A stretch of 13,767 nucleotides of DNA, taken from positions 1 through 13,767 of the forward strand of contig CAVPVX010000008.1 in the NCBI GenBank assembly GCA_963709345.1. The letters are read 5' to 3'. Position numbers and translations under genes: made by a program. This DNA is from an uncultured Actinomycetes bacterium. GTDB lineage: Bacteria > Actinomycetota > Thermoleophilia > UBA2241. Positions 87 to 13,767 of the stretch are shown here, piece by piece. The notes under the pieces were generated by a model that was given only the letters and a program-made list of their open reading frames with translations, was not told the origin of the DNA and did no database searches. Within the stretch, counting starts at the first letter, position 1. Each line of letters opens with the position of its first letter.

Positions 87-1475
87 TCATGCGAGCCCTG
101 CGTGCCGTTTGAAGCGCTGCACGCAATTGATCGGCAGATCCAGCAGTTCGGCGATCCTGAACTTCGCCTCCATGGCGCTCGACTGGGTGGGGTAGCTGAT
201 CTCAAAGGTCGTGATGCGCCCGAGCTGCCGCTCCCTTCGCACGTCCTCCATGGCGATGGGATCGGAGAGGTCGAAGGGGCTGACCCCGAGCCGCTCCGCA
301 ACGTAGGCCTTAGCCTCACGGATCCGCATTCCCCGAGTGATCTGCATGCGCGCCACCAGATCTCCAGCAGCGCGCATCCCGCACATCCCCGAGGCGGTCG
401 CGTGAGCACACGGCATCCCGAGAGGGTCGCCGCCGCCGACCTACAAGCCGTCCAGCCGCAGAATGTCGACGGTGGCGCGCGAGGCGCGCGCCACGGCGTC
501 CAGCGGCAGGTAGCTGGTGGTGGGGACGGCGCCGACGCCCATGCCGATGTTCATGTGCACGGGGATCTCGGCCACCTCCATGCACGGCTTGACGATCGTC
601 AGCGCGCGCGCGATGTTCCACGCCCCCGTGCGGCGGGTGTTGACGGTGATCGCCGGGCCGTAGATCGTCGCCCCGGCCCGGCGCACGAGCTCCATCTGTC
701 CGCGCGGCCAGAGACCGGCCAGGCGCACCCCGTCGTACTCGAGCCGGCCGTGCATGCCGAGCACGAACTCGCCGGCCATGCCGACCTGGATGCCCATGTC
801 GGGATGGGCCGCGCGGATGCGCTCGATCGCGAGTAGGGTGGCCAGGAAGTCGCCGTCGCCGGCCGCGCCGGCGGTGTCGAAGTCGATGCCGTCGGCGCCC
901 GCCTCCCACAGCGCGTCGGCGGTCTTCACCATGTCTTCGACGGCGTACCCGACCGCGTCCTCCTGGGCCGCTCGCGCCTCGTCCACTCGCGCCAGCGGCA
1001 GCAACTCCGACCAGTTGGGCGCCGGCCCGTCGGGCTTTGAGTACAGGCCCAGATTGGGCATCGCCCCGTACATCAGCGGCACCGTGAGAACCGCCTGTGC
1101 ATCTTTCATGCTCTGCGCCTCGAACGGCAGGATGGTCCGGATGGCCTTGAACGAGTAGTCGACGTGCCCGAGCTCGACGGAGTCGGCTCCGAACATCTGC
1201 TCGTAGATGAGCAGGTCCTGGGTGCGCGTGCCGACCGTCTTTGACCCCGAGCCGTCGTAGGTGAGCACGACTTCGTCGCCGATGTCGACGGCGGAGAACT
1301 TGGCCGGCGACGCCCAGATCTCAAGCAGGTGGTCGAGCTCGTCCGCGGACAGCGGCGGCACCTTGGCCCGGCTCGCCGCCGCCAAGGTGCCCTCTTCGAG
1401 CTCCGCGCGCAGCTCGCTGCGCGTCAAGCGGGTCAGCGAGCCGTCACCCATGCGGGTCGGGAACTGCGTCTCCAT
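87..1475 (-). CDS. mtbB: Dimethylamine:corrinoid methyltransferase MtbB, 462 aa, with in-frame TAG (pyrrolysine) at codon 345
   Basis: ORF 441..1475 (TRMGDG N-terminus, YGAMPNLGLY, DTAGAAGDGDF, MGVGAVP) ends LDGL-TAG at 443..441. The same frame continues VGGGDPLGMPCAHATASGMCGMRAAGDLVARMQ...EAKAYVAERLGV into ORF 87..416, the typical MtbB C-terminal region after Pyl. AAGGAG RBS at 1490..1485; TGA stop. Confidence 0.93.
441..443 (-). other. In-frame amber codon, predicted pyrrolysine site of MtbB
   Basis: Reads GAC GGC TTG TAG GTC GGC GGC GGC GAC CCT, matching the DG(I/L)-O-(I/V)GxGDP motif of MtbB. Confidence 0.9.
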
Positions 1476-1492
1476 CTTCCGGTGCTCCTTGT

Positions 1493-2920
1493 TCAGTGGC
1501 CGCCCGCGCCACGCGCGTACCGCTCGAACGCGGCGCGCGCCTCGCGGCGGGCATCGTCGGGGATGGGGGTCGGCACGTGCGCGGCGAGCACTGCTTCAGC
1601 GCGCGCCAGCGCGTCGCTCACCAGGGAACGCCCCGCATACGCGGATGGGGCCTCACGCTGGAACACGGATGCGCGCCAGATCTCACCGCGGCGAGAGTTC
1701 ACGCGAGAGCTGCGCCGCGCGAGGAACTGACCGCCCGGGCCGACCGCGGCGATGTCGTCGATCAGGGTCGACGCGTCGTCCACGGTGTCGGGCAGCTCGA
1801 GCAGGCGCTTGACCGACCCGATGAGGTCGCAGTCGAGGATGGTCTTGGCGGTGGATACCGCCTCGTCGACGACCCCGGCCCCGACGAGCAGATCGGCGCC
1901 GCACAGCACGGAGGTCGCCGCCGTCAGTGCACCCTCCGAGCCGGCCTGGAAGTTGGCGGCCTTGGCATCCGAGCTCATGCCGGCGCTCATGCTCGGCAGG
2001 CCGTACCGACGGGTCATGGCCAGGCTCGCCATGTCGATCAGCGCGACCTCGGGCGTGCCGCTGAGATACCCGCCGGTGCGCAGATGCGTGGAGCCGCCGA
2101 TGGCGACCACCATGAGAGGGCAGCCCGGCGCCGCCAGCTGGAAGATGGTGACGGCGGCCAGGATCTCCGCGAGCGTGATGACGGTCGTGCCCAGGACGCT
2201 CAGAGGAGCCGTGGTACCCATCAGCGGCAGGGGATGGACGAGGATCGGTACCCCGTGGCGCGCGAGCTCGATTGAGGCCTCGAGCTTGTCGCCCTCGAAC
2301 CGCAGCGGCGACACGGGGCAGTGCAGCGAGGAGTAGATCGGCCGCTCGTGCATCGGCGCCCCCGCGATCGCCTCCAACATCTCCAGAAGGGGCGGCACCT
2401 GCTCCGGCGAGTGCGCCACGACGCTCTGCACGTGCTTGGAGGTGGACTCCAGGGCGATGAGATCGGTCTCGAGGCCCACCGTCGGCGCATCGAGCTCACC
2501 CAACGTCAGCGAGGTCCAGATGAAGTCGAGGTCGTCAAGAGCGTCGAAGAGGCCGTAGAAGTAGGCGAGGTCGTCGCGCGTAGCGTCACGCACCGCGTCG
2601 GTCACGTCGTCCAGGACCGTCATCACCATGCCGTCCGTGCAGCAGGCCAGCGGCGAGCCGGCGCCGACGAGCAGGTCGTGAGCCGCGTCGCGGGCCGCGA
2701 GCCGCACGCTCCCGGGAGCCTTCTCCAGACAGCTCTCGACCAGCTCTGGGGGCAGGGTCGCGGTGCGGCGCTCCCTGTCGACGTGGGCGCCCGCGTCGGC
2801 GAGGAGGTCCAGGGCGACGGTGGACTCCACGCCGATGCCCACGTGCTCGAGCACGTACAGGACGCGCTGGTGCAGCGCGTCCTTCTCGGCGGCCGAAAGG
2901 CACCCGAACTTCAGGTGCAT
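1493..2920 (-). CDS. MttB-superfamily methyltransferase without Pyl, 475 aa; Ser at the Pyl-equivalent position
   Basis: Start is ATG 2920 (MHLKFGCLSAAE) with GGGAG RBS; the upstream part of ORF 1493..3487 is an off-frame read of mttB. Motifs CPVSPLRF, MGTTAPLSVLG, GTPE, YGLPSMSAGMSSDAK, VGPGGQFL. Confidence 0.9.
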   Translation of the reverse strand: MHLKFGCLSAAEKDALHQRVLYVLEHVGIGVESTVALDLLADAGAHVDRERRTATLPPELVESCLEKAPGSVRLAARDAAHDLLVGAGSPLACCTDGMVMTVLDDVTDAVRDATRDDLAYFYGLFDALDDLDFIWTSLTLGELDAPTVGLETDLIALESTSKHVQSVVAHSPEQVPPLLEMLEAIAGAPMHERPIYSSLHCPVSPLRFEGDKLEASIELARHGVPILVHPLPLMGTTAPLSVLGTTVITLAEILAAVTIFQLAAPGCPLMVVAIGGSTHLRTGGYLSGTPEVALIDMASLAMTRRYGLPSMSAGMSSDAKAANFQAGSEGALTAATSVLCGADLLVGAGVVDEAVSTAKTILDCDLIGSVKRLLELPDTVDDASTLIDDIAAVGPGGQFLARRSSRVNSRRGEIWRASVFQREAPSAYAGRSLVSDALARAEAVLAAHVPTPIPDDARREARAAFERYARGAGGH

Positions 2921-4395
2921 TGTGGACTCCCTACTGCCGCAGCGGCGTCGGCCGCGTCCACGATCTCGCGGATCTCGCGCACGACGTCGTCGGGCAGCGG
3001 CTCCGGCACGTGCGTCGCGAGGATGCGGCGCGCCTCCTCCAGCGCGCGCTGATGCAGGTCCTTGCCGCCGGCGGCGGCCCAGTCCTCCCGCACCCTGCGG
3101 TCGATCAGCTTCGGCTGGGACTGGCTGCGCATGAACTTGAGTGTGGAGTCCAGGCTGAGGAAGTCCCCGAAGGGGCCCACCTGCGCGATGTCGTCCACGC
3201 CGAGCCGCTCGTCGTCCACCGGGACACCCATGACCGCGTGCTTGATCATCCGGGCGAACTCGTTGTCCATGACGAGCTGGCCGAAATCGAACGCGACACC
3301 CGACTCGATCATCCCCGCGCCGTAGATCAGGTTGGCACCTGCCAACGCCGGCAGCAGCGCGGTCAGCGTCTTCTCGTGACCGGTCTGAGCGTCGAAGAGC
3401 TTGGAGTCGCCCTACAACCCGGCCACGTAGCTGGGCAGGCGATACCGTCGCGCGATGGCGGCTGCGGCGGCGCTGATGACGCCACACTCCGGCGAGCCGA
3501 CGGAGGCCGCCGCGAGGCGCAGGTCCATGGCCGTCGTCGAGCTGCCGTAGAGCATCGGCGTGCCTGGGCTCGTGAGCTGCGCCAGCGTGATTCCGGCGAG
3601 CACCTCAGCGTTGTGGACGACGAGTGTACCGGCGAGATTGACGGGGGCCGAGCCACCGGCCATCGCCATCGAGAGCACCAGACAGGGGACGCCGGCGCGC
3701 GCGGCCGAGACGATCGCCTCCGAGCACTCCTTGGGGAGCTTCAGCGGACTCACCGGACATACTCCGATCATCACCATCGGACGCCGCCGCAGAGCCTCCC
3801 GGTCACCCACGACGGCGGCGGCGATGTCGAGTATCGTCTCGGCCTCCCAGCGGGAGAGGGGGCCGGCGCAGATGTGCTTACTGGTGTTGAGCAGCGCCGC
3901 CTCGTAGCTGTGGATGGTCGCCGTCGCGGTCGGCATGTCGTGAGCTCCGACGGCGATCTCGTACGTGTCCAGTTCGTCCAGGTAGTCGGCGACTCGCGCG
4001 GTGTCGGCGACGTCCTGCTTGGTCGGCTCGCGCATCTCGCCGGTCTCGGGGTCGACGATGCTGATGCCCTCGCCGAACGTCGTGAAGCCGACGCGCCCGG
4101 CATCGAGCATGATGTCGTCCTTGGGGCTGCGACCGGCGGCCAGGATGCGCTCCGGCGACGAGTCGATCGCCGCCTCGACGAGCCGCGGCGGAATCCTCAC
4201 GACCCCGGTCGCACGATCGACGATCGCGCCGCCGGACTCGAAGATGTCCAGCGCCTCGGGGTCGTCGGTGAAGACGCCAGTCTGCTCGAGGACCTCCAGA
4301 GTCGCGACGTGGAGGTCCCTGAACTCGTCGTCGGTGAAGGCATTCAGGCTGAAGCCTCCGCTGCGCGTACGTCCCGCGTGGGCACGTCGTTTCAA
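2911..4395 (-). CDS. mttB: Trimethylamine:corrinoid methyltransferase MttB, 494 aa, with in-frame TAG (pyrrolysine) at codon 328
   Basis: ORF 3412..4404 ends LPSYVAGL-TAG (3414..3412) and continues in frame [38 protein letters not shown] into ORF 2911..3345. TTG start at 4395 is preferred: it lies 7 nt after GGAGGT and gives MKRRAHAG, aligning with the paralogue's MKRNLHAG. Confidence 0.94.
3412..3414 (-). other. In-frame amber codon, predicted pyrrolysine site of MttB
   Basis: GTG GCC GGG TTG TAG GGC GAC TCC AAG = VAGL-O-GDSK, matching the MttB VAGx-O-xD(A/S)K motif. Confidence 0.92.
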
Positions 4396-4420
4396 TGGAC
4401 CCACCTCCCCCGATAGTTTC

Positions 4421-4438
4421 GCTATCTATACATATAGC
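4421..4438. promoter_or_regulatory. AT-rich imperfect palindrome, candidate TetR operator between divergent mttB and tetR
   Basis: GCTATCTATACATATAGC has 7 of 9 symmetric pairs. It lies between a TTGACG -35-like hexamer (minus strand, 4460..4455) and the mttB RBS. Confidence 0.5.
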
Positions 4439-4485
4439 AAGCCAGTCTGGTCTGCGTCAAGAACTCCATGGTACGCTGCGACGCG

Positions 4486-5163
4486 ATGGACCGAGCGCAC
4501 TCCACAGAGCAGCCCGCAAGGAGCCTGCAGCCGCAACAGAACAGACGTCAGCTCAGCGCGGCCGCGTCAAGAGACAGGCTCATCGAGGCGACGATCCTGT
4601 GCATGGCCAACTACGGCCCCGCAGGCGTTTCCATCGAGAGGATCACCGACGCCGCCGGGGTGTCTCGCGGCCTGGTGCGGCACCACTTCGGCAGCAAGCG
4701 TCGGCTCCTCCTCGAGGCGTTCCGGCGCCTCGCGGACGGGCAGCGGGCGGCGTTCACAGCCGGCCCGGCGGAGGACGACGATCCGGTGGCGACGCTACGC
4801 GCGATCGTCGCCACGGACTTCCGTGAGGAGCTGGCCGCGCCTGAACGGGCTCACGCCTGGTTCGGGTTCTGGCAGGCAGCCCTCGGCGACCCGGACCTCA
4901 AGGAGATCAACGAGCGTGTGTACGCCGACGAGCGCGAGCGGTACAGCGAGCTCTTCCGCGAGGCGGCGCGGCGACAGGGCCTGGACATCGATCCCCGCAA
5001 GGCCGGGATCGGGCTCGTGGCCCTCGCGGACGGAGCCTGGATCGAATTGCTGATGGCGGCGACGGACTTCAGTGTCGACGATGCGCTCGCGCTCTGCGAC
5101 GACTACATCGACATGGTCCTGGAGCGGGGCCGCTCCGGTCGCGGGAGAGCCGGAGGCAGCTGA
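4486..5163 (+). CDS. TetR-family transcriptional regulator, BetI-like
   Basis: N-terminal TetR HTH (LIEATILCMANYGPAGVSIERITDAAGVSRGLVRHHFGSK) and a BetI-type C-terminal segment (AWFGFWQAALGDPDL). Start is ATG 4486 or 4468; neither has a clear RBS, and TG-g-TACGCT at 4469..4477 favours a leaderless start at 4486. Confidence 0.88.
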   Translation: MDRAHSTEQPARSLQPQQNRRQLSAAASRDRLIEATILCMANYGPAGVSIERITDAAGVSRGLVRHHFGSKRRLLLEAFRRLADGQRAAFTAGPAEDDDPVATLRAIVATDFREELAAPERAHAWFGFWQAALGDPDLKEINERVYADERERYSELFREAARRQGLDIDPRKAGIGLVALADGAWIELLMAATDFSVDDALALCDDYIDMVLERGRSGRGRAGGS

Positions 5164-5176
5164 GCCGTCACGGCGC

Positions 5177-5206
5177 GGCCCCTCGCGAACGCCCTCGCGG
5201 GGGGCC
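5177..5206. terminator. GC-rich hairpin between convergent tetR and MttB-family genes, likely a bidirectional terminator
   Basis: GGCCCCTCGCGA-ACGCCC-TCGCGGGGGGCC forms a 12-bp stem with one G:U pair. There is no U-tract. Confidence 0.55.
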
Positions 5207-5218
5207 CCGCTTGGCCGG

Positions 5219-6631
5219 TCAGCCCCCCGGCCGCCGGGCCTCGACGTCCGCAAGGATCCGGTCGAGGCCCGCCGTCACGTCATCCGGCAGCGCGAAGGCG
5301 CGCGGCTCGGAGCGCAGCTCCGCGACTCGCGCCCGCAGGCGGTCGAGCAGCGTCTTTGACCCGTCCGCCTCCCAGGCGTCGTGCCGCGTCGTGTCCAGGA
5401 AGTCGCTCTGCCAGATCTTGCGGAAGTGCTTGCGCGTGTAGGGCCGGGCCAGGTGGTTGCCGCCCGGCCCCACCGCCTCGATCTCGTCCAGCGCCAGCGC
5501 CTCGTCGTCCACAGGTAGCGGCGCCATGAACGCCTTCGCCCAGCCGAGCAGGTGGTCGCCGAAGACGATCGACTCGTAGCTGCTCTGCAACCCGCACTCG
5601 AGGTAACCGACGTCGTGCAGCAGCGTCCCGCGGCTGAGCTTGCCGAGGATCGCCGTCAAAGCCGCCTCCGCGCTCCACTGCTCGTCCAGCAGCTTGCTGT
5701 CGGTGTGCGCCGCGTAGGCGAAGCTCGGCAGGTCGTACCAGCGCGCCAGGTCGGTCTGCGCCTGGTGGCCGCGGAAGACGTCGGCGGACGAATACACTTC
5801 GTTCATCGTCCGCATGTTCATGGCGCCGACCCCGACGCCCCAGACGAACGGCGCACCGGGTTTGACCGCCTGGCTCAGAACGAGGCCGGCGAGGACCTCG
5901 GCGTTGGCGACCACGATGACGGCGGCCACGCTGGCCGGCGCCGTGGTGCCGGCGTTCGGCGCCGGCGCCCAGACGAGCGGGATGCCGAGCTCGGCGCAGG
6001 CGATCACCTTGCTGGCGCCGTCCTCGTCAAGAAGGAGCGGCGGCACGGGCATGGCGTAGATGGCGAAGCTGCCCGCCTCGCCGGCGAGCGCCGCCATCTC
6101 CCGCATCCTCGGGAGGATGTGCCCATCGCGGGGCGCCACGATGAGCGGCTTGCGCGTGCCCCGCAGCATGGCGTCCACCTGCACGAGGTCGTCGATCGCC
6201 TGCGGAGCATCTTCCGGCAGGCCCATGCTCATGACGAAGTCGATGTTGGGCAGCTTCTCGCAGAGAGCCGCCATGCCCTCGACGTCGGCGCGGCGGACGC
6301 GGCGGCGCTCACGGGTGTCCGGGTCGCAGACGTACAGGATGTCCGACCCAGTGCCGCAGTAGGTGTGGCCGGCGTCGAGCACGAGCGGCTCGGTCTCGCC
6401 GCCGCGCGACTTGATGGTCCAGTCGCGCGACGCGCTCTTGAGCGCCGCACCGACAAGCTCAGCGGGGATGCGCACCCGCGCCCCGTCCACCTGTGCACCG
6501 GCCCCGGCGAGGATCTCGACGGCCGGCGCGTAGTGCACGTCGATCCCCGTCTCGGAGAGCACCTGCAGCGTCGCCTCATGCACACGCCGACAGGCGGCCG
6601 CGTCCCAGATTGTCAGATGCGCCTCGTTCAT
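5219..6631 (-). CDS. MttB-superfamily methyltransferase without Pyl, 470 aa; His at the Pyl-equivalent position
   Basis: Motifs VHEATLQVLSETGI, AGTTAPASVA, NAEVLAGLVLSQAVKPGAPF, YDLPSFAYAAHTDSK, VGPGGNHL. GAGGAGG RBS at 6642..6636. Confidence 0.92.
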   Translation of the reverse strand: MNEAHLTIWDAAACRRVHEATLQVLSETGIDVHYAPAVEILAGAGAQVDGARVRIPAELVGAALKSASRDWTIKSRGGETEPLVLDAGHTYCGTGSDILYVCDPDTRERRRVRRADVEGMAALCEKLPNIDFVMSMGLPEDAPQAIDDLVQVDAMLRGTRKPLIVAPRDGHILPRMREMAALAGEAGSFAIYAMPVPPLLLDEDGASKVIACAELGIPLVWAPAPNAGTTAPASVAAVIVVANAEVLAGLVLSQAVKPGAPFVWGVGVGAMNMRTMNEVYSSADVFRGHQAQTDLARWYDLPSFAYAAHTDSKLLDEQWSAEAALTAILGKLSRGTLLHDVGYLECGLQSSYESIVFGDHLLGWAKAFMAPLPVDDEALALDEIEAVGPGGNHLARPYTRKHFRKIWQSDFLDTTRHDAWEADGSKTLLDRLRARVAELRSEPRAFALPDDVTAGLDRILADVEARRPGG

Positions 6632-6758
6632 ACCGCCTCCTCATTCACGCCCGGCACCACCAAGCTCCGTGAATCGAGCAGGTGCGAGCACATGCCTCGA
6701 CAGGGCCGGCGGGTCCCGGCCCGGACGAGTCTACCTCGGCCGCGCCGTATCCCCGCTC

Positions 6759-6804
6759 AGAGAATCTCATTGGCATCTGATCCATCCCCCCGAGAGAATC
6801 GCAT
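6759..6804. repeat. 12-nt imperfect direct repeat AGAGAATC(T/G)CAT, two copies
   Basis: AGAGAATCTCAT at 6759..6770 and AGAGAATCGCAT at 6793..6804, 34 nt apart, in a divergent intergenic region. Confidence 0.5.
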
Positions 6805-6844
6805 CTGTTTGGTCGGTGGCCTCCCCCGATGTAGGCCCTCTCGA

Positions 6845-6871
6845 GCACGGATCACCGGTGGTGATCCGTGC
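6845..6871. repeat. Perfect 12-bp inverted repeat with a 3-nt spacer
   Basis: GCACGGATCACC-GGT-GGTGATCCGTGC, in the divergent intergenic region 6632..6962. Confidence 0.7.
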
Positions 6872-6962
6872 CGGTTCTGAGGTGGACCGAGATGAAGCCT
6901 ACCTGCGAATCTACCCGCGACTGGGGAATCGGCGGGCAGGAGCACGGCCCTGGGGGCGCTCC

Positions 6963-8039
6963 ATGCATCTGACCGTCGGGCAAGCCGCCCGGACGCTCGG
7001 CGTGACGCCGAACACCGTCCGCCGCTGGACGGCGACGGGGTTTCTCCCGTGCGAGCACGCTGCCGGCGGCCACCGGCGCATCGCACGGGACGACATCGAT
7101 GAGTTGAGAAGAGCCATCGGGGAAAGCGGCCGGCTTCAGGCGCAACTGGCACGCGAGCGGGAAGTCGACACACTGGCGCAAGTGCTCATCGACCTGGCCG
7201 GCATGCTCGACCGGCAGGAGCTCCTCGCGACGATCGCCCGTCACGTCACGCGCCTCTGCGACTGCAGTACGTGTGCGATCAGCGGCTACGATGCGGCCGC
7301 CGGAAGTGTGCACGTCCTCGCGGAGTACGACGCGAGCGGGCAGCGCCTGCCGTCGACCACGGCCGTCGACATCGAGGACTACCCGCTCACGCGCCGTGTG
7401 CTGGAAAGGGGGGAGACCGTCGTCGTCAATGTGGATGACCGCGACGCCGACCCCGCCGAGGTCCGACTGCTGCGCCGCTACGAGGATCAGAGCGTGCTCA
7501 TCGTGCCGCTTGTCGTCGGCGATGATGCGATCGGCATTCTGGAGGCAGTCGACTCGGACCGGCCTCGCTTCTACTCCCCGCAGGAGTTGCGCCTCATGAG
7601 AGCGCTGGCCGGCAGCGCCGCGGTCGCCATACGCAACGTTGAGATGTACCGCGACGCGATGCGCGCCGGCGACGCAGCTGTCGTTCTTCCGACGCGGCTG
7701 AAAGACCTCGCCGACCGCATCGCCGACCCCGGCGACCTGCGCGAGCAGGCGGATTGGCCGGGCCCCGTCGCGCGACTCGCCTGCGACCTCTTCGCGGCGC
7801 ACTCATGCCTCATCGTCCGCGACAGCCAGGTCGTCGGCGCCGCCGTCGCAGCGGTATCGGCCGGCGAGCGAGGGGTGAGCCCGGCGTCCGACGGGCGTGA
7901 CGCCGCGAGCGTGCTGACGAGCGCTCGCACCGGGCCGGTCGGGGCATACGCACTGACCGTCACCCTGCTTCGTCCCGCCGAGCCCGGCGAGGGAGAGCTC
8001 CTCGACTTGCTCGCCGCGTTCGCCGCCGGGCTGGGCTGA
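6963..8039 (+). CDS. DNA-binding protein with MerR/excisionase-like HTH plus GAF domain, 358 aa
   Basis: MHLTVGQAARTLGVTPNTVRRWTATGFLPCEHAAGGHRRI is a MerR-like HTH. GAF motifs follow (SVLIVPLVVGDDAIGILEAVDSDRPRFYSPQELRLMRALAGSAAVAIRN). The first 98 codons of ORF 6669..8039 look non-coding. Confidence 0.82.
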   Translation: MHLTVGQAARTLGVTPNTVRRWTATGFLPCEHAAGGHRRIARDDIDELRRAIGESGRLQAQLAREREVDTLAQVLIDLAGMLDRQELLATIARHVTRLCDCSTCAISGYDAAAGSVHVLAEYDASGQRLPSTTAVDIEDYPLTRRVLERGETVVVNVDDRDADPAEVRLLRRYEDQSVLIVPLVVGDDAIGILEAVDSDRPRFYSPQELRLMRALAGSAAVAIRNVEMYRDAMRAGDAAVVLPTRLKDLADRIADPGDLREQADWPGPVARLACDLFAAHSCLIVRDSQVVGAAVAAVSAGERGVSPASDGRDAASVLTSARTGPVGAYALTVTLLRPAEPGEGELLDLLAAFAAGLG

Positions 8040-8257
8040 CGGCCGACCACATTCGCCTGCAGCGCAACCCGGCCGATTTCTCCACGACGCGGATCCACCC
8101 GTGGCAGGGTAGTCCTTACGTCGTCCGCGGATCGATTGTCCACCAGGCGCGTGTGCACCCGGACGCGCGAGGCTGCAGGCTTCACAGCGCCGCTCGACCC
8201 CACAAAGAGGAGCCCACATATCCAGAGCCGCCGACTCCGGCACCGAAGGCCGCACGG

Positions 8258-9155
8258 GCCACCCCGTCCTCGCTCGGCTACCGCATGCCGGCCGAATGGG
8301 AGCCGCACGAGCGCTACATCATGGGCTGGCCCACCCGGATCCGCATCCGCTCCGTCTGGGGCGAGCACTACGTGCGGGCGATGGCGAACCACGCGGCCGC
8401 GACATCGAGGTCGTCTAGATGCCGATCGACGACTCGTGGCTCCGCGACAGCTGGCCGATCTTCGTCACGCGCCCTGACGGCACGCTCGCCGTCAGCGACT
8501 ACGCCTTCAACTCCCGGGGCGAGAAGTGCCCACCCTACGACAACGATGCCGCCGTCGGCCGCCGGCTCGCCGAGCACTTCGGCGTGGAGCGCTTCGCCGC
8601 CCCGATGGTCCTCGGGGAGGCGGCATCACCATCGACGGCGAGAGCACGCTGGTCACCACTGGGAGCTGCCTGCTGCATCCTTCGCGCAACCCCGGGCCAA
8701 CCGAGGATGAGATGACGCGGATACTCAAGGACTACCTCGGTGCGGAGAAGGTCATCTGGCTCATCTCAGGACTGGGCCTTGACAAGGACCCCGACACCGA
8801 CTGGCATGTGGACGGCGTGGGCGCGTTCGTCGGCCCCGGCAGGGTGCTGCTTCACAGGGTTCGTGACCCGCAGCACCCCGACTTCGAGAACCCGGCGGAG
8901 AACCGCCGCCGGCTGCATATCGCCGACGCCCGCGGCCGGGACCTCGAGGTGACCGGGTTCGCCCGGCGGAGCGCGCCGGTGCTCATCGGCGACATGCCGA
9001 TCGTCGAGACCTACCTCGACTCGTACTTCGCCAACGGCGCGCTGATCGTGCCCTTCGACGGCAACGGGGACGACGACCTCGCCGCCTCAGACGCCCTGCG
9101 TGAGATCGTGCCCGGGCACGAGGTCGTCGGCGTGCCGTGCCCGGTCATCGGCTAC
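8258..9155 (+). pseudogene. aguA: Decayed agmatine deiminase / peptidylarginine deiminase family gene
   Basis: Family motifs lie in three frames: GYRMPAEWEPHE...WP, then DIEVV*MPIDDSWLRDSWP, then GGGITIDGE...RNP...TDWHVD...YFANGALIVP. Lesions: internal deletion with frameshift near 8400, TAG at 8416..8418, 1-nt deletion near 8614 destroying EGG, and loss of the C-terminal GGGxxHC catalytic-Cys motif after 9155. Confidence 0.85.
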
Positions 9156-9183
9156 AGCCGCCTCCCCGTCCGATCCGCCGAGA

Positions 9184-10647
9184 TCAGTCCATCTCATCCC
9201 GGCGCCACAGCGTGACGCCCTTCGGCATCGAGATACCGAGGCAGCGCCGCAGCGCGCGCGAGACCGGGTCGGGCCTGCGACCCTCGTCCTCCATCACCTC
9301 ACAGCGCTCGATGGCGCTGCGCACCGCGCGCGCGCCGACCGAGCGGATGGGCTCCGGCGGCAGGTAGGTCGGCGGCTCCGAGACCAGCGGCGACTGCGCG
9401 AAGTCGTCGTCGAGCCCCAGGACGACCGAGGCCAGGGTGCGGCCGATGAGGTTGGAGGCTGAGACGCCGTTGCCGGAGTAGCCCAGGCCATAGTGGACGT
9501 TGCGGTACGCGCCCAGGGTGCCGACCCAGGGAATGCCGTGCTGAGTGCGCTCGAGGGGCCCGCCCCAGCGCCACTCGACCGCGAGGTCGCGAGTGGCCGG
9601 CAGCATCCCGCGCATGTCCGCGACGACGCCCTCTATCTCGCGGAGATCGTGGAAGTGGGCGGGGATGATGCGGCCGCCGTAGCCGAGGCGGCCGCCACCG
9701 CGGCCGAAGACGACGCGGTCGTCGGCCGTGCGCTGGGCGTAGTGCACGGCGGTGCGCCCGTCCGAGAAGGGACGGCCATGCACCCAGCCCAGGCGGTCCA
9801 GAGCCTCCTGCGAGCTCGCCGTCGCGACCACGTGCGAGGGGATGATGAAGATGGTTCGGCGCAGCTCCGGCACCAGGCCGAGCCGGGCGCCGGAGGCGAG
9901 GACCACCCTGTCGGCGGTAACGCTCCCGGACGGGGTCTTGACGACGGCGGGCAGCGTGCGCTGCAGGCCGGCCATCGGCGTTGCCTCGTAGACGCGCACG
10001 CCGGCCGCGACGACCAGCCGGCGCAGGCCCTGCACCAGCAACGCCGGCTGGACGCTGCCGGCCTGCAGGATCAGCGCCCCGGCCTCGGCCGCCGGCGACC
10101 CCGACAAGGCACGGGCCTCGTCCCCGTCGAGGACGCGGAAGAGGTCGTCGCGACCGAGCTTGCGGGCCAGAAGAGCAGGCTCGAGGATGCCGTCGACCTG
10201 GGCCGGGGAAAGCGCCACGGTCAGGCCGCCCGTGAACGAGAGGTCGCAGTCGATGTCGCCGTCCCGTACCGTCTCGCGGATGTCGTCGAGGCTGCGCCGG
10301 GAGGCGTCGACCAGCCACAGCCCGGCGTCGCGGCCGAACCGTGAGATGAGCGCGGGCATGATGTCGTCCCAGCCGTTCACCCAACCGCCGTTGCGCCCGC
10401 TGGCGCCGGCTCCGCAGTACTCGCGCTCGATGAGCACGACATCCGTCCCGGGTGAGAGTCGCTTCACGGACAGGGCGGTCCACAGGCCGGTGAACCCGCC
10501 GCCGACGATGCACACGTCGGCGCGTTCGGTGGTCGTCAGCGGCAAGATGTCGACCGTATTCCAGCGCGGGTCGCCACCTTGCCAGAAGACTGCAGCGCGT
10601 GTCGCGTCGCCGTTCCACGCCCTCGCCTGGCTCATCCGGTCCACCAT
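9184..10647 (-). CDS. FAD-dependent oxidoreductase, DAO/glycine oxidase family (PuuB-like), 487 aa
   Basis: Motifs ADVCIVGGGFTGLWTA, GAGASGRNGG, VQPALLVQGL, WGGP, GYSGNGV. ATG 10647 has GGAGG 8 nt upstream; an alternative ATG is at 10635. Confidence 0.9.
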   Translation of the reverse strand: MVDRMSQARAWNGDATRAAVFWQGGDPRWNTVDILPLTTTERADVCIVGGGFTGLWTALSVKRLSPGTDVVLIEREYCGAGASGRNGGWVNGWDDIMPALISRFGRDAGLWLVDASRRSLDDIRETVRDGDIDCDLSFTGGLTVALSPAQVDGILEPALLARKLGRDDLFRVLDGDEARALSGSPAAEAGALILQAGSVQPALLVQGLRRLVVAAGVRVYEATPMAGLQRTLPAVVKTPSGSVTADRVVLASGARLGLVPELRRTIFIIPSHVVATASSQEALDRLGWVHGRPFSDGRTAVHYAQRTADDRVVFGRGGGRLGYGGRIIPAHFHDLREIEGVVADMRGMLPATRDLAVEWRWGGPLERTQHGIPWVGTLGAYRNVHYGLGYSGNGVSASNLIGRTLASVVLGLDDDFAQSPLVSEPPTYLPPEPIRSVGARAVRSAIERCEVMEDEGRRPDPVSRALRRCLGISMPKGVTLWRRDEMD

Positions 10648-10688
10648 CTTCGCTCCCTCCTTCGGCCGCCTCGCAGGTCGTCGCCGCG

Positions 10689-11276
10689 CTAGACCCAGAA
10701 CCCGGGCGGCTCGGCGAGTTCGGGATGCTCCCGCTCGAAGGCGAGAGCCGCCTCGAGCGTCCGCACCCAGTCGTAGTAGACGCCCTTGCAGTGGACGAGC
10801 TCGACGCCGAGATCGCGCAGGCGGGCGAGGCCGTAGGCCTGCGCGCCCGCCGGCGTGAAAACGGCGTCGGCGGCCACCACGACGCGATAGCCGGCCTCTG
10901 CGAGGCCGGCGGCTGAGTGCGTCACGCAGACGTCGGTCTCGAAGCCGCAGAGGACGGCCGTCCGGCGGCCGGTAGCCTTGATCGCCGCCCTGATGTCCGG
11001 GCAAGCGGCAAGATCGAAGACCGGCTTGGTGAACACCGGCGCCCTGCGGCCGACGGCGAGCAGCACGCCCCCCGCCGTCGGCCCGTTGCGCGCAGGGTCC
11101 TCCTCGGTCAGCACAGCCGGCACGCCCAGGGCGATCGCCGTCCCCGCCAGCCACGAGGCACGAGCGGCCGCCACACCGACCTGCGCCGCGTCAGCCTTGT
11201 CCAGCCTGTCGTTCCAGAACTCGGGCTGCAGATCGATGACGATGAGGATGGAATCGTCGCGTTCGATCAGCGGCAT
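10689..11276 (-). CDS. Isochorismatase-family cysteine hydrolase, 195 aa, ending in TAG
   Basis: ILIVIDLQ, FTKPVF and LCGFETDVCV supply the Asp-Lys-Cys triad. ATG 11276 has GGAGG at 11286..11282. Confidence 0.88.
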   Translation of the reverse strand: MPLIERDDSILIVIDLQPEFWNDRLDKADAAQVGVAAARASWLAGTAIALGVPAVLTEEDPARNGPTAGGVLLAVGRRAPVFTKPVFDLAACPDIRAAIKATGRRTAVLCGFETDVCVTHSAAGLAEAGYRVVVAADAVFTPAGAQAYGLARLRDLGVELVHCKGVYYDWVRTLEAALAFEREHPELAEPPGFWV

Positions 11277-11609
11277 GGTCGCCTCCGGTGACGTGGACGG
11301 GTCTGCCGGCGGCCGGAATCGCCCGCCGGCGGCTGCCCGCACGATACCACCACCCGCCAAGATCCCGAACGACCACAAGTTGGGCGAACTTCGCACCATC
11401 GCCGAGCCGCCAGAGACGGATTGCTCGGCGAAGTTGGGCGTGCGAGCCATTGACGCTTTACTCGCGGGCTCCCCGCCCTTACGCTCGAGATCTGCGAGCG
11501 GCGGGACGCTCCAGCGACCACGCCTGCGGAGGGCCGGGCGGCCCTACGTCTGTCCGCCTCACCCGCCGTCTCGTCACCTACAGACGCTTGTGGCAGCGGA
11601 GGTTCTCCA

Positions 11610-13081
11610 GTGAAGCGAAATCTGCACGCCGGGCGCCCCAGCTCCGGTGGGCTCAGCCTGAAGGTGTTCACGGAGGCCGAGCTCGACGACATCCATCTGG
11701 GCTCGCTCGAGGTCCTCGAACGCACGGGGATGTGGGTCGAGGCCGACGATGCGCTCGACATCTACAGCGATGGCGGCTGCCTCGTCGACCGCGAGACGCG
11801 TATGGTGCGCATCCCGCCTTATCTTGTGGAGGATGCGCTCCGCTCCTGCCCGCCCAAGAGCTATCTCTGTGGCCGCGACCCGGAGCAGGACATCGTCCTC
11901 GAGGGCGGCCGTGTCTACGTCTCCAACTTCGACGAAGGCATCATGCTCGTCGACACGCGCACCGGCGAGTACCGCCACCCGGTGTTACAGGACGTGCACG
12001 AGGCCGCACGGCTGGTCGACGCGCTGAGCGACATCGACACCTACGAGTCCGCCGTGCACCCGGGCGACGTCCCGGAGGCGACGGCGAGCCTCCACAAGTG
12101 GGAGGCGGCCATCCTGAACACCGGGAAGCCGGTGGGCACCGAGGCGACCAGCGCCTACGACTGCCGCAAGCTCATCGAGATGGCCACGGTGGTCGCGGGC
12201 GGCGAGGACGCGTTCCGCCACCGCCCGCTCATCGGCTTCGGCGTCTGCCCAGTGAGCCCGCTCAAGCTGCCGCGTGACGCCAGCGAGGTGATCATCGAGT
12301 CGGCGCGCGCCTGGTGCCCGGACACGATCCTCAGCATGGCGATGTCCGGAGGATCCTCCCCGGTCACCCTCGCCGGCACGCTCGTGCTGCACAACGCCGA
12401 GGTCCTCGCGGGCATCGTCCTCGCGCAGCTGGTCGAGCGCCGGCTGCCCCGTCACGTACGGCTCGTCGACTACGGCGATCGACCTGAAGCTGGCGGCGGC
12501 GTGCGTGGGCTCGCCCGAGCTCGCCCTGTTCAGCGCCGCCTGCGCCCAGATCGCTCGCCGCTACCTGCTTCCGAGCTTCGTGGCCGGGTTGTAGGCGGAT
12601 TCCAAGCTCGGTGACGCGCAGACCGGTCACGAGAAGACCCTCACCGGACTCCTTCCTGCGTTGGCAGGCGCCAACCCGAATCTACGGGGCGGGGATGGTC
12701 GATCAGGGCGTCACCTTCGACCTTGGCCAACTGGTCATGGACAACGAGATCGCGCGGATGATCAAGTTCGTCGTCGCCGGCATCTCGGTCACAGACGAGA
12801 CCATGGCGGTAGACGACATCGCCAAGGTCGGCGCGTTCGGCGACTTCCTCTCGCTCGACGCCACGCTCAAGCACATGCGCGAGCTCAGCCAGCCGGAGGT
12901 CCTCGACCGGCGCGTGCGCGAGGACTGGGAGAGCAGGGGCGCGACAGACCTCGCCGCGCGGACGCGCGCCCGGGCGCTGGAGCTTGTGGAGTCGCACCAG
13001 CCCCTGCCCATCGACCCCGACGTCGCCGAGCAGGTGCACCGCATCATTGAAGCTGCCGACCGTGAGAAAGGCGTGGCATGA
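11610..13081 (+). CDS. mttB: Second Pyl-type MttB (about 489 aa when repaired; TAG at 12592..12594, codon 328) interrupted by two +1 frameshifts (pseudogene or sequencing errors)
   Basis: GTG start with GGAGG at 11598..11602; colinear with mttB 2911..4395. After an extra C near 12441 the frame reads [26 protein letters not shown]...[38 protein letters not shown]. After an extra base near 12679 it reads [23 protein letters not shown] to TGA at 13081. Confidence 0.88.
12592..12594 (+). other. In-frame amber codon, predicted pyrrolysine site of the second MttB
   Basis: GTG GCC GGG TTG TAG GCG GAT TCC AAG = VAGL-O-ADSK. Confidence 0.88.
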
Positions 13082-13704
13082 ACGACCAGCTCAAGCAGGC
13101 CATCATCGCCGGCGACGCCGATGTGGCCACCGCACTCACCACGGCGCTCCTCGCCACCGGGGCCACGGCGCGGGAGATCCTCGACTCCGCCCTGCTCCCC
13201 GGCATGGAGGTCGTCGGCACGCGCATGCGTGACGGCGAGTGCTTCATCCCCGAGGTGCTGCTCTCCGCCCGCGTCATGCAGGCCTGCCTCGACCTGCTGC
13301 GCCCGCACATGGCCGCCGGCGACGAGGCCGGCGGCGGCGTGGTCGTGATCGGCACCGTCGAGGGCGACCTGCACGACATCGGCAAGAACCTCGTCGGCAT
13401 GCTCCTGCAGGGGGCCGGGTTCACGGTCGTCAACCTCGGCACCGGGGTGACGGCGGCCGACTTCGTCGCCGCCGTCAAGGAGCACTCGCCGAAGATCATC
13501 GGCATGAGCGCCCTGCTCACGACCACCCTGCCGCACATGGCCGAGACGATCGCCGCGCTCAAGGCCGAGAGCCTGCGCGACTCCGTCAAGGTGATGGTCG
13601 GCGGCGCCCCGGTGACCGCCGCCTACGCCGACGAGATCGGCGCCGACGGCTACGGCGCCAACGCCGGCATGGCGGTGGAGCGGGCGAAGGAGCTGGTGGG
13701 GTAA
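13078..13704 (+). CDS. Methyltransferase cognate corrinoid (B12-binding) protein, MttC/MtbC family, 208 aa
   Basis: Cap domain (LLPGMEVVG...FIPEVLLSARVM), DxHxxG motif (GTVEGDLHDIGKNLV), SALLTTT, VMVGGAPVT, IGADGY. ATGA overlap with the mttB stop. Confidence 0.95.
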   Translation: MNDQLKQAIIAGDADVATALTTALLATGATAREILDSALLPGMEVVGTRMRDGECFIPEVLLSARVMQACLDLLRPHMAAGDEAGGGVVVIGTVEGDLHDIGKNLVGMLLQGAGFTVVNLGTGVTAADFVAAVKEHSPKIIGMSALLTTTLPHMAETIAALKAESLRDSVKVMVGGAPVTAAYADEIGADGYGANAGMAVERAKELVG

Positions 13705-13731
13705 GCTGGGGGAAGCGGCCCGGAGGTGCCC

Positions 13732-13767
13732 ATGACGACCATAGACCGCGACCGCCTCGCGGCGCTC
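13732..13767 (+). CDS. 5' end of a gene running off the window (MTTIDRDRLAAL...), possibly a class-III aminotransferase
   Basis: GGAGGT RBS at 13722..13727 and ATG at 13732. Similar to the partial gene at 1..40. Confidence 0.45.
   Translation, partial: MTTIDRDRLAAL

Follow-up and report, generated by a model that had tools for sequence, protein, structure and literature searches.

The window analyzed here is a stretch of 13,767 nucleotides (nt) that makes up the whole of contig C8 in the 11-contig, 3.11-Mb genome of an uncultured member of the Thermoleophilia. The genome is rated 98% complete, and the G+C content of the window is 70% across its entire length. The window very probably represents a methylated-amine catabolism island in which the UAG codons of mtbB and mttB are read as pyrrolysine (Pyl). 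This predicted island contains three methyltransferase genes with an in-frame UAG (one mtbB, two mttB), a corrinoid protein gene, two paralogues without pyrrolysine and two regulators. The dimethylamine:corrinoid methyltransferase gene mtbB (PF09505, TIGR02368) is located on the minus strand at 87..1475 and carries its TAG at 441-443 (codon 345). Its read-through product of 462 amino acids matches the Pfam family Dimeth_PyL (PF09505) from end to end with 553 bits and reaches 460.8 bits against the TIGR02368 equivalog, which has a cut-off of 369.1. A sequence search for a solved MtbB structure found none. The first trimethylamine:corrinoid methyltransferase gene, mttB1 (TIGR02369, PF06253), is positioned at 2911..4395 on the minus strand with a TAG at 3412-3414. 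Read through, it is full-length from 2911 to either 4404 or 4395 and scores 305 bits with PF06253 and 698.9 bits with the TIGR02369 equivalog (cut-off 525). Its TTG start at 4395 sits 8 nt behind a GGAGG motif, which the alternative GTG at 4404 overlaps. The best match among solved structures, PDB 7xcm_A (420 bits, residues 2-485), aligns the TAG to chain residue 334; 2qne and 9yce are the next-best PDB matches after structures of this type. mttB1 is followed by a paralogue without pyrrolysine, not by a corrinoid protein gene. The second trimethylamine methyltransferase gene, mttB2, occupies 11610..13081 on the plus strand, with a TAG at 12592-12594 (codon 328), and is matched by three Pfam MTTB pieces that lie in three frames. 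The equivalog cut-offs of the family hidden Markov models (HMMs) for mtbB and mttB were reached only by read-through products.

These three TAG positions had been proposed in a sequence-only reading of the same DNA, and all of them were borne out, on the minus strand for the first two and on the plus strand for the third. The expectation that standard gene calling would fragment the genes also proved right, as each of them appears as split open reading frames (ORFs) under table 11. The same reading placed both mttB ambers at codon 328. This holds if mttB1 starts at TTG 4395, but from GTG 4404 the amber becomes codon 331. The description of each TAG as having the C-terminal part of the enzyme behind it in the same frame applies to mtbB and mttB1, where the Pfam and NCBIfam matches of the read-through translations span the TAG, but not to the third gene with its three frames.

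The pyl genes sought in the genome, namely pylB, pylC, pylD, pylT(CUA), pylSn and pylSc, are all present and span approximately 8 kb of contig C11. pylB (427 bits, cut-off 348.2) and pylD (212.5 bits, cut-off 150.05) are intact. pylC reaches 280.1 bits summed (cut-off 248.3) with an apparent frameshift ahead of roughly the last 60 residues (C11:13850-13880). The assembly is prone to indels, and this break may be either genuine or an indel error of the assembly. A tRNA-Pyl with a CUA anticodon was called by ARAGORN at C11:14991-15063. The synthetase is encoded by two separate genes, pylSn (122.5 bits, cut-off 51.15) and, on the opposite strand, pylSc (318.2 bits, cut-off 178.15). The order is pylB-pylC-pylD-pylT, an unrelated gene on the opposite strand, pylSn, a corrinoid protein gene and then pylSc. 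The corrinoid gene between pylSn and pylSc (C11:17711-18310) is 39% identical to that of the window. An aldehyde:ferredoxin oxidoreductase gene stands beside the pyl genes, and a RamA-type corrinoid activator is present in the genome. Enzymes of the MttB and MtbB families demethylate trimethylamine or dimethylamine and transfer the methyl group to a Co(I) corrinoid protein. Judged from this gene set, PylBCD would make pyrrolysine, the split, bacterial-type PylSn/PylSc would charge it onto the tRNA(CUA), and the charged tRNA would translate UAG as pyrrolysine.

Retrieval with MtbB yielded 31 related loci from metagenome-assembled genomes (MAGs) titled Thermoleophilia, Actinomycetes or Actinomycetota, with a single one titled Deltaproteobacteria. 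The closest records bear the names Thermoleophilia or Actinomycetota, in agreement with the actinobacterial host that had been assumed from the sequence. Of the 31 loci, 26 carry TAG at the position aligned with that of the window; two end short of the site and three are frameshifted. When homologues of at least 45% identity were counted in the window's own genome and in the related loci, TAG was kept in 42 of 43 MtbB matches, the exception being in a frameshifted locus, and in 34 of 34 MttB matches. The relatives examined at the amber sites keep TAG there in place of a sense codon. Immediately upstream of the recoded TAG stands TTG in mtbB, mttB1 and mttB2 of the window (both codons together at 441-446, 3412-3417 and 12589-12594) and in most homologues, and GCG, GCA, TAC, TTC, CTG or CTC in the remaining ones. 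The record labelled Deltaproteobacteria (JBLMXT010000075.1) shares 88% (mtbB) and 84% (mttB) protein identity with the window; an error of binning or labelling may account for this, or else a recent transfer of the genes.

The own genome harbors about ten TAG-bearing mtbB genes (on C8, C10 and C6, five on C7 and two on C11) and about seven TAG-bearing mttB genes (two on C8 plus their twins on C1, two on C7, and others on C6, C10 and C11), besides dozens of MttB-superfamily matches of the non-Pyl type. Two matches to the MtmB family (PF05369), at C7:776285-777439 (248 bits) and C2:391900-393261 (214 bits), have no in-frame stop and appear to be monomethylamine-methyltransferase homologues without pyrrolysine. 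Across the class, 401 genomes were sampled, and 81 of them had a PylSc above the cut-off. Such a score was obtained in 73 of the 79 genomes of the window's own family, in 9 of 61 of one other family and in none of the 261 genomes of the ten remaining families.

If the TAGs were ordinary stops, the genes would be split or truncated and pyrrolysine would not be inserted. Such an explanation could appeal to the presence of release factor RF1 and to TAG being a common stop in this genome. However, the parts past the TAG stay in frame with a coding-type composition, they are conserved in protein to 48-60% identity, and the TAG is fixed at one column. With the whole pyl gene set present and the equivalog cut-offs met only on read-through, ordinary termination at these sites is highly improbable. 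The decoding of UAG as the 22nd amino acid, as put forward in the sequence-only reading, is supported by the pyl gene set, by the conservation of the TAG and by the matches to the pyrrolysine insertion element (PYLIS) models described below.

RF1 was detected above its cut-off (483 bits), and among 2172 confident ORFs, chosen by codon-position G+C, the stops are TGA in 1575, TAG in 518 and TAA in 79. With RF1 present and about a quarter of the genes ended by TAG, UAG carries a dual meaning in this organism. Further genes with pyrrolysine were sought among the same ORFs. A coding-like extension follows 62 of the 518 TAG, 115 of the 1575 TGA and 12 of the 79 TAA ORFs, which leaves no clear excess once the approximately 18 methyltransferases are set aside, so that pyrrolysine genes beyond the methyltransferases were rejected. 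A tRNA-Sec (UCA) is encoded at C1:120215-120312, and the genome therefore probably recodes UGA as selenocysteine in addition to UAG as pyrrolysine.

The sequences downstream of the three UAGs match known RNA elements, each of which starts at the TAG. The element of mtbB is a PYLIS_2 (RF02509) at 344..443 on the minus strand (78.6 bits, gathering threshold 36). Those of the mttB genes are PYLIS_3 (RF02510; gathering threshold 38), at 3315-3414 on the minus strand for mttB1 (78.2 bits) and at 12592..12692 on the plus strand for mttB2 (69.3 bits). In mttB1 the element is part of a stretch of about 45 codons (3277..3414, minus strand) with frozen synonymous sites. Synonymous variation was assessed at degenerate codons with an invariant amino acid, where a site was scored as variable upon any synonymous change among orthologues of other species. 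For mttB1, only 9 of 42 sites were variable in the 45 codons past the TAG, compared to 218 of 294 elsewhere (p = 6e-11). The corresponding values were 5/43 versus 166/351 for mttB2 (p = 3e-6) and 9/41 versus 178/324 for the mttB of the C10 cluster (p = 9e-5). The lowest 45-codon window in the three mttB sets begins at codon 327, 322 and 325, respectively, with the TAG at codon 328. No such trough occurs in four control genes (the two non-Pyl paralogues, the tetR gene and the DAO gene), whose lowest windows range from 0.28 to 0.41. In mttB2, about 100 nt past the TAG are identical in four species. The frozen mttB codons include rare ones, such as TTG (4% of Leu codons), GCA and GGT, with usages of 4-8%, and this speaks against a selective preference for optimal codons. 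These comparisons indicate that the sequence past the recoded mttB UAG is strongly selected at the RNA level.

Pairing was examined in both elements as well. The mttB1 stem-loop at 3315-3362 has the form GUUGGC-AGGN-GCCAAC within a 7-bp outer helix; 94.4% of cells are paired in the mttB stem-loop, compared to 31-54% in slid controls, and four pairs change on both sides, which lends this stem-loop partial support. The mtbB element contains a 14-bp hairpin (346-377) with 89% of cells paired, compared to 34-41% in slid controls, and a fold z-score of -2.36. In this hairpin, third codon positions covary: 10 sequences combine Arg CGC with Ala GCG, 11 combine Arg CGG with Ala GCC or GCT, and 2 of the 28 are unpaired. 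A further set of wobble bases, those of Ala/Thr and Val, pair (C/U-G, A-U, G-C) in 25 of the 28 sequences. As the sequences are related and do not represent independent events, the number of changes is lower than the counts suggest.

Several observations weigh against the proposed reading of the island. The case for pyrrolysine is made from sequence alone. A search of the genome, which is 98% complete, for CdhC/acetyl-CoA synthase (PF03598) was negative. No back-up stop is favoured near the TAG of TAG-ended genes, as the median next in-frame stop lies 51 codons away, compared to 53 after TGA. The variable-site test was not significant for mtbB (19/36 past the TAG versus 203/293 elsewhere, p = 0.059) or for the mtbB of the C10 cluster (19/39 versus 174/319, p = 0.5), so that the trough in pairwise diversity of mtbB is weak evidence on its own. 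The mttB elements fold no better than shuffled sequences, with z-scores of -0.73 for mttB1 and of +0.84 and -1.67 for the others; two control stretches gave +0.55 and -0.29. Finally, should the apparent pylC frameshift and the two frame breaks in the window's mttB2 prove genuine, some of the system would be in decay.

The PYLIS_2 and PYLIS_3 elements past each recoded UAG would plausibly favour insertion over termination. Quite possibly, the 100-135 nt of mttB and the wobble-paired 14-bp hairpin of mtbB are working recoding signals at the approximately 17 chosen sites. As a tentative extension, such signals could make insertion of pyrrolysine efficient although RF1 is kept and a quarter of the genes end in TAG. 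It is likewise a real possibility that the frozen mttB sites have another cause at the nucleotide level, such as gene conversion, an antisense or small RNA, or local translation speed. The stretch is near-identical among paralogues of only 50-65% protein identity, as conversion would give; the mttB fold is not unusually stable; and the available part of PMC3639795 (2013), which gives canonical structures for mtmB and mtbB, states "no sign of common structure" for mttB. Against such causes, each of three separate orthologue sets has a trough that begins within 1-6 codons of the TAG, the two non-Pyl paralogues show none, and rare codons (TTG, GCA, GGT) are among those conserved. In addition, conservation between species is not explained by conversion alone. 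If the recoding-signal interpretation is true, PYLIS elements are selected cis-signals in bacteria, though they have long been regarded as dispensable, or as absent in the case of mttB. The many orthologues would in any case provide an unusually clean natural test of RNA-level selection past a recoded UAG. A full-text literature search combining PYLIS, mttB and synonymous sites surfaced only PMC3639795.

The frame breaks of mttB2, which the sequence-only reading had overlooked, were traced by alignment with three orthologues from other species. One extra C is located near 12440, upstream of the TAG, and a second near 12675-12679, 28 codons past it; each lengthens a run of C. Both insertions are absent from all three orthologues and from the twin copy of the gene on contig C1, which is intact, with one match over residues 3-486 and 666.3 bits against TIGR02369 (cut-off 525). 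Contigs of relatives lack the extra base at 12440 in four of four public sequencing runs (2, 1, 1 and 3 contigs) and at 12679 in all three runs with coverage (2, 1 and 1 contigs). Contigs from RNA libraries that bridge the TAG come from relatives, and such libraries may contain DNA. No public run contained half or more of the window's own words, the best share being 0.14. Because they are missing from the C1 twin, the three orthologues and the environmental contigs, the insertions are quite likely errors in the consensus of a redundant, noisy contig. That the gene is instead a true pseudogene, inactivated recently and carrying two frameshifts, is unlikely. Both extra bases do stand in the assembled sequence, and with about seven Pyl-type mttB genes in the genome the loss of one could be cost-free. 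However, besides extending runs of C and being missing from the intact twin, the orthologues and the relatives' contigs, the breaks have a counterpart on C1, where the mttB1 twin is in pieces although the window copy is whole. Moreover, 50 of the 77 single-base indels between window and C1 adjoin the same base, which suits consensus noise.

This twin covers most of the window, as positions 1193-13767 are a reverse near-copy of the last 12.5 kb of C1 (441903-454417). Megablast reported 97.7% identity with 150 gap positions and 137 mismatches, and a global alignment 97 indel events and 210 mismatches. Most indel events (85 of 97) fall in 4000-9200, and 9200-13767 is near-identical. The window reaches 1192 nt past the end of C1. 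It is probably a redundant or strain-variant contig of the C1 end, and its genes are therefore not to be counted twice. That C8 instead represents a true second genomic copy, generated by segmental duplication, is doubtful. Both contigs are in the same bin, their identity is below 100%, and the window continues beyond C1. On the other hand, the alignment extends right to the C1 end, the indel events are bunched with the remainder almost identical, and both window ends break off within repeated gene families, as would be expected if one locus had been assembled redundantly or a co-binned strain were present. The window ends are the first codons of similar genes, at 1-40 on the minus strand (MTAIIDRDRLAEL) and at 13732-13767 on the plus strand (MTTIDRDRLAAL). 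Next to the corrinoid protein gene, on its downstream side, C1 carries a class-III aminotransferase gene (PF00202).

The presumed cognate corrinoid (B12-binding) protein (PF02310, PF02607) is encoded at 13078..13704 on the plus strand, directly after mttB2. It scores 186-224 bits with the MtgC, MtbC and TIGR02370 models, all under their cut-offs. The gene exists in four genomic copies, including C7:343293-343918, C10:87661-88282 and C11:177547-178168, with 98.6-99.5% protein identity, and each copy adjoins a Pyl-type methyltransferase gene. They look like repeats kept alike, with contig breaks as a likely consequence. The two MttB-superfamily paralogues without pyrrolysine are located on the minus strand. 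The first (1493..2920) has Ser at the Pyl position and starts with ATG 2920 behind a Shine-Dalgarno-like motif; it scores 216 bits with PF06253 and 298.5 bits with TIGR02369. The second (5219..6631) has His at this position and scores 228 and 291.3 bits, respectively. Both TIGR02369 scores are under the cut-off of 525. None of the NCBIfam models named a substrate for either paralogue; they probably act on other methylated amines.

Of the two regulators, one is a BetI-like member of the TetR family (4468..5163, plus strand; PF00440, PF13977) that scores 107 bits with BetI models, under their cut-offs. The other combines a MerR-type helix-turn-helix with a GAF domain (6963..8039, plus strand; PF13411, PF12728, PF01590); its start is guessed, as the ORF is open from 6669. 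An agmatine deiminase-like (PAD_porph, PF04371) gene at 8153..9215 on the plus strand lies in two frames, with matches in two overlapping ORFs (8153-8710 and 8526-9215), and the indel differences between the window and C1 peak in this stretch. The minus strand also encodes a flavin adenine dinucleotide (FAD)-dependent amine oxidoreductase of the DAO family (9184..10515; PF01266, 179 bits; TIGR03329, 378 bits, under cut-off) and an isochorismatase-family hydrolase with a guessed start (10689..11276; PF00857, 68 bits).

Taken at face value, a whole family of uncultured Actinomycetota from soil, wetland and sediment would consume tri- and dimethylamine by means of a 22-amino-acid code. Since these amines are otherwise substrates of methanogens, the bacteria may compete for methane precursors. 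Since standard annotation splits the Pyl genes, this capacity is undercounted in surveys of MAGs. The finding is nevertheless less novel than had been claimed, since the trait has been published before for this lineage. The available parts of PMC9630628 report two Actinobacteria among 81 bacterial PylRS genomes, and its tables list PylSc of "Thermoleophilia_bacterium" (a MAG) and of "Actinobacteria_bacterium_ADurb.BinA094". According to the accessible text of PMC10805028, some Actinobacteriota MAGs from Stordalen Mire express Pyl-encoding mttB and mtbB. Among the passages returned by a full-text literature search, no relevant paper paired pyrrolysine with Thermoleophilia and none tied Thermoleophilia to mttB. 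The pyrrolysine trait is thus not new for the lineage; added here are the frozen synonymous sites of mttB and the covarying hairpin of mtbB.

The system can be compared to several known ones. It resembles the MttB of Methanosarcina with its corrinoid protein (7XCL, 7XCM and 7XCN, which we take to be M. barkeri MttB entries with Pyl as residue 334) in that the TAG aligns to chain residue 334 and a corrinoid gene follows mttB2. It differs from Methanosarcina in its bacterial host of 70% G+C, in the approximately seven Pyl-type mttB and ten mtbB genes per genome, and in that the methyl group cannot enter methanogenesis here. With the bacterial Pyl systems of Firmicutes and Deltaproteobacteria, as surveyed in PMC9630628, it shares separate pylSn and pylSc genes, pylBCD, a pylT(CUA), a frequent use of TAG as stop and the retention of RF1, whereas the order of the pyl genes is its own and the host belongs to the Thermoleophilia. 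The Actinobacteriota MAGs of PMC10805028 come from the same phylum and contain the same two gene families, recognised by amber truncation. As far as the accessible text of that paper goes, they are treated in one sentence and a figure; the pyl genes, the PYLIS elements and the paralogue counts come from the present analysis. The RNA elements agree with Rfam PYLIS_2 and PYLIS_3 in full-length matches of 69-79 bits, and the second helix of the PYLIS_2 model falls on the hairpin of mtbB. Unlike PYLIS_2, this hairpin extends over 14 bp and covaries at wobble positions, and unlike PYLIS_3, the mttB signal combines a frozen primary sequence with a small stem-loop not drawn in the consensus. Finally, the two paralogues at 1493-2920 and 5219-6631, with a sense codon at the Pyl position, resemble the non-Pyl glycine betaine methyltransferase MtgB (2QNE, 9YCE).

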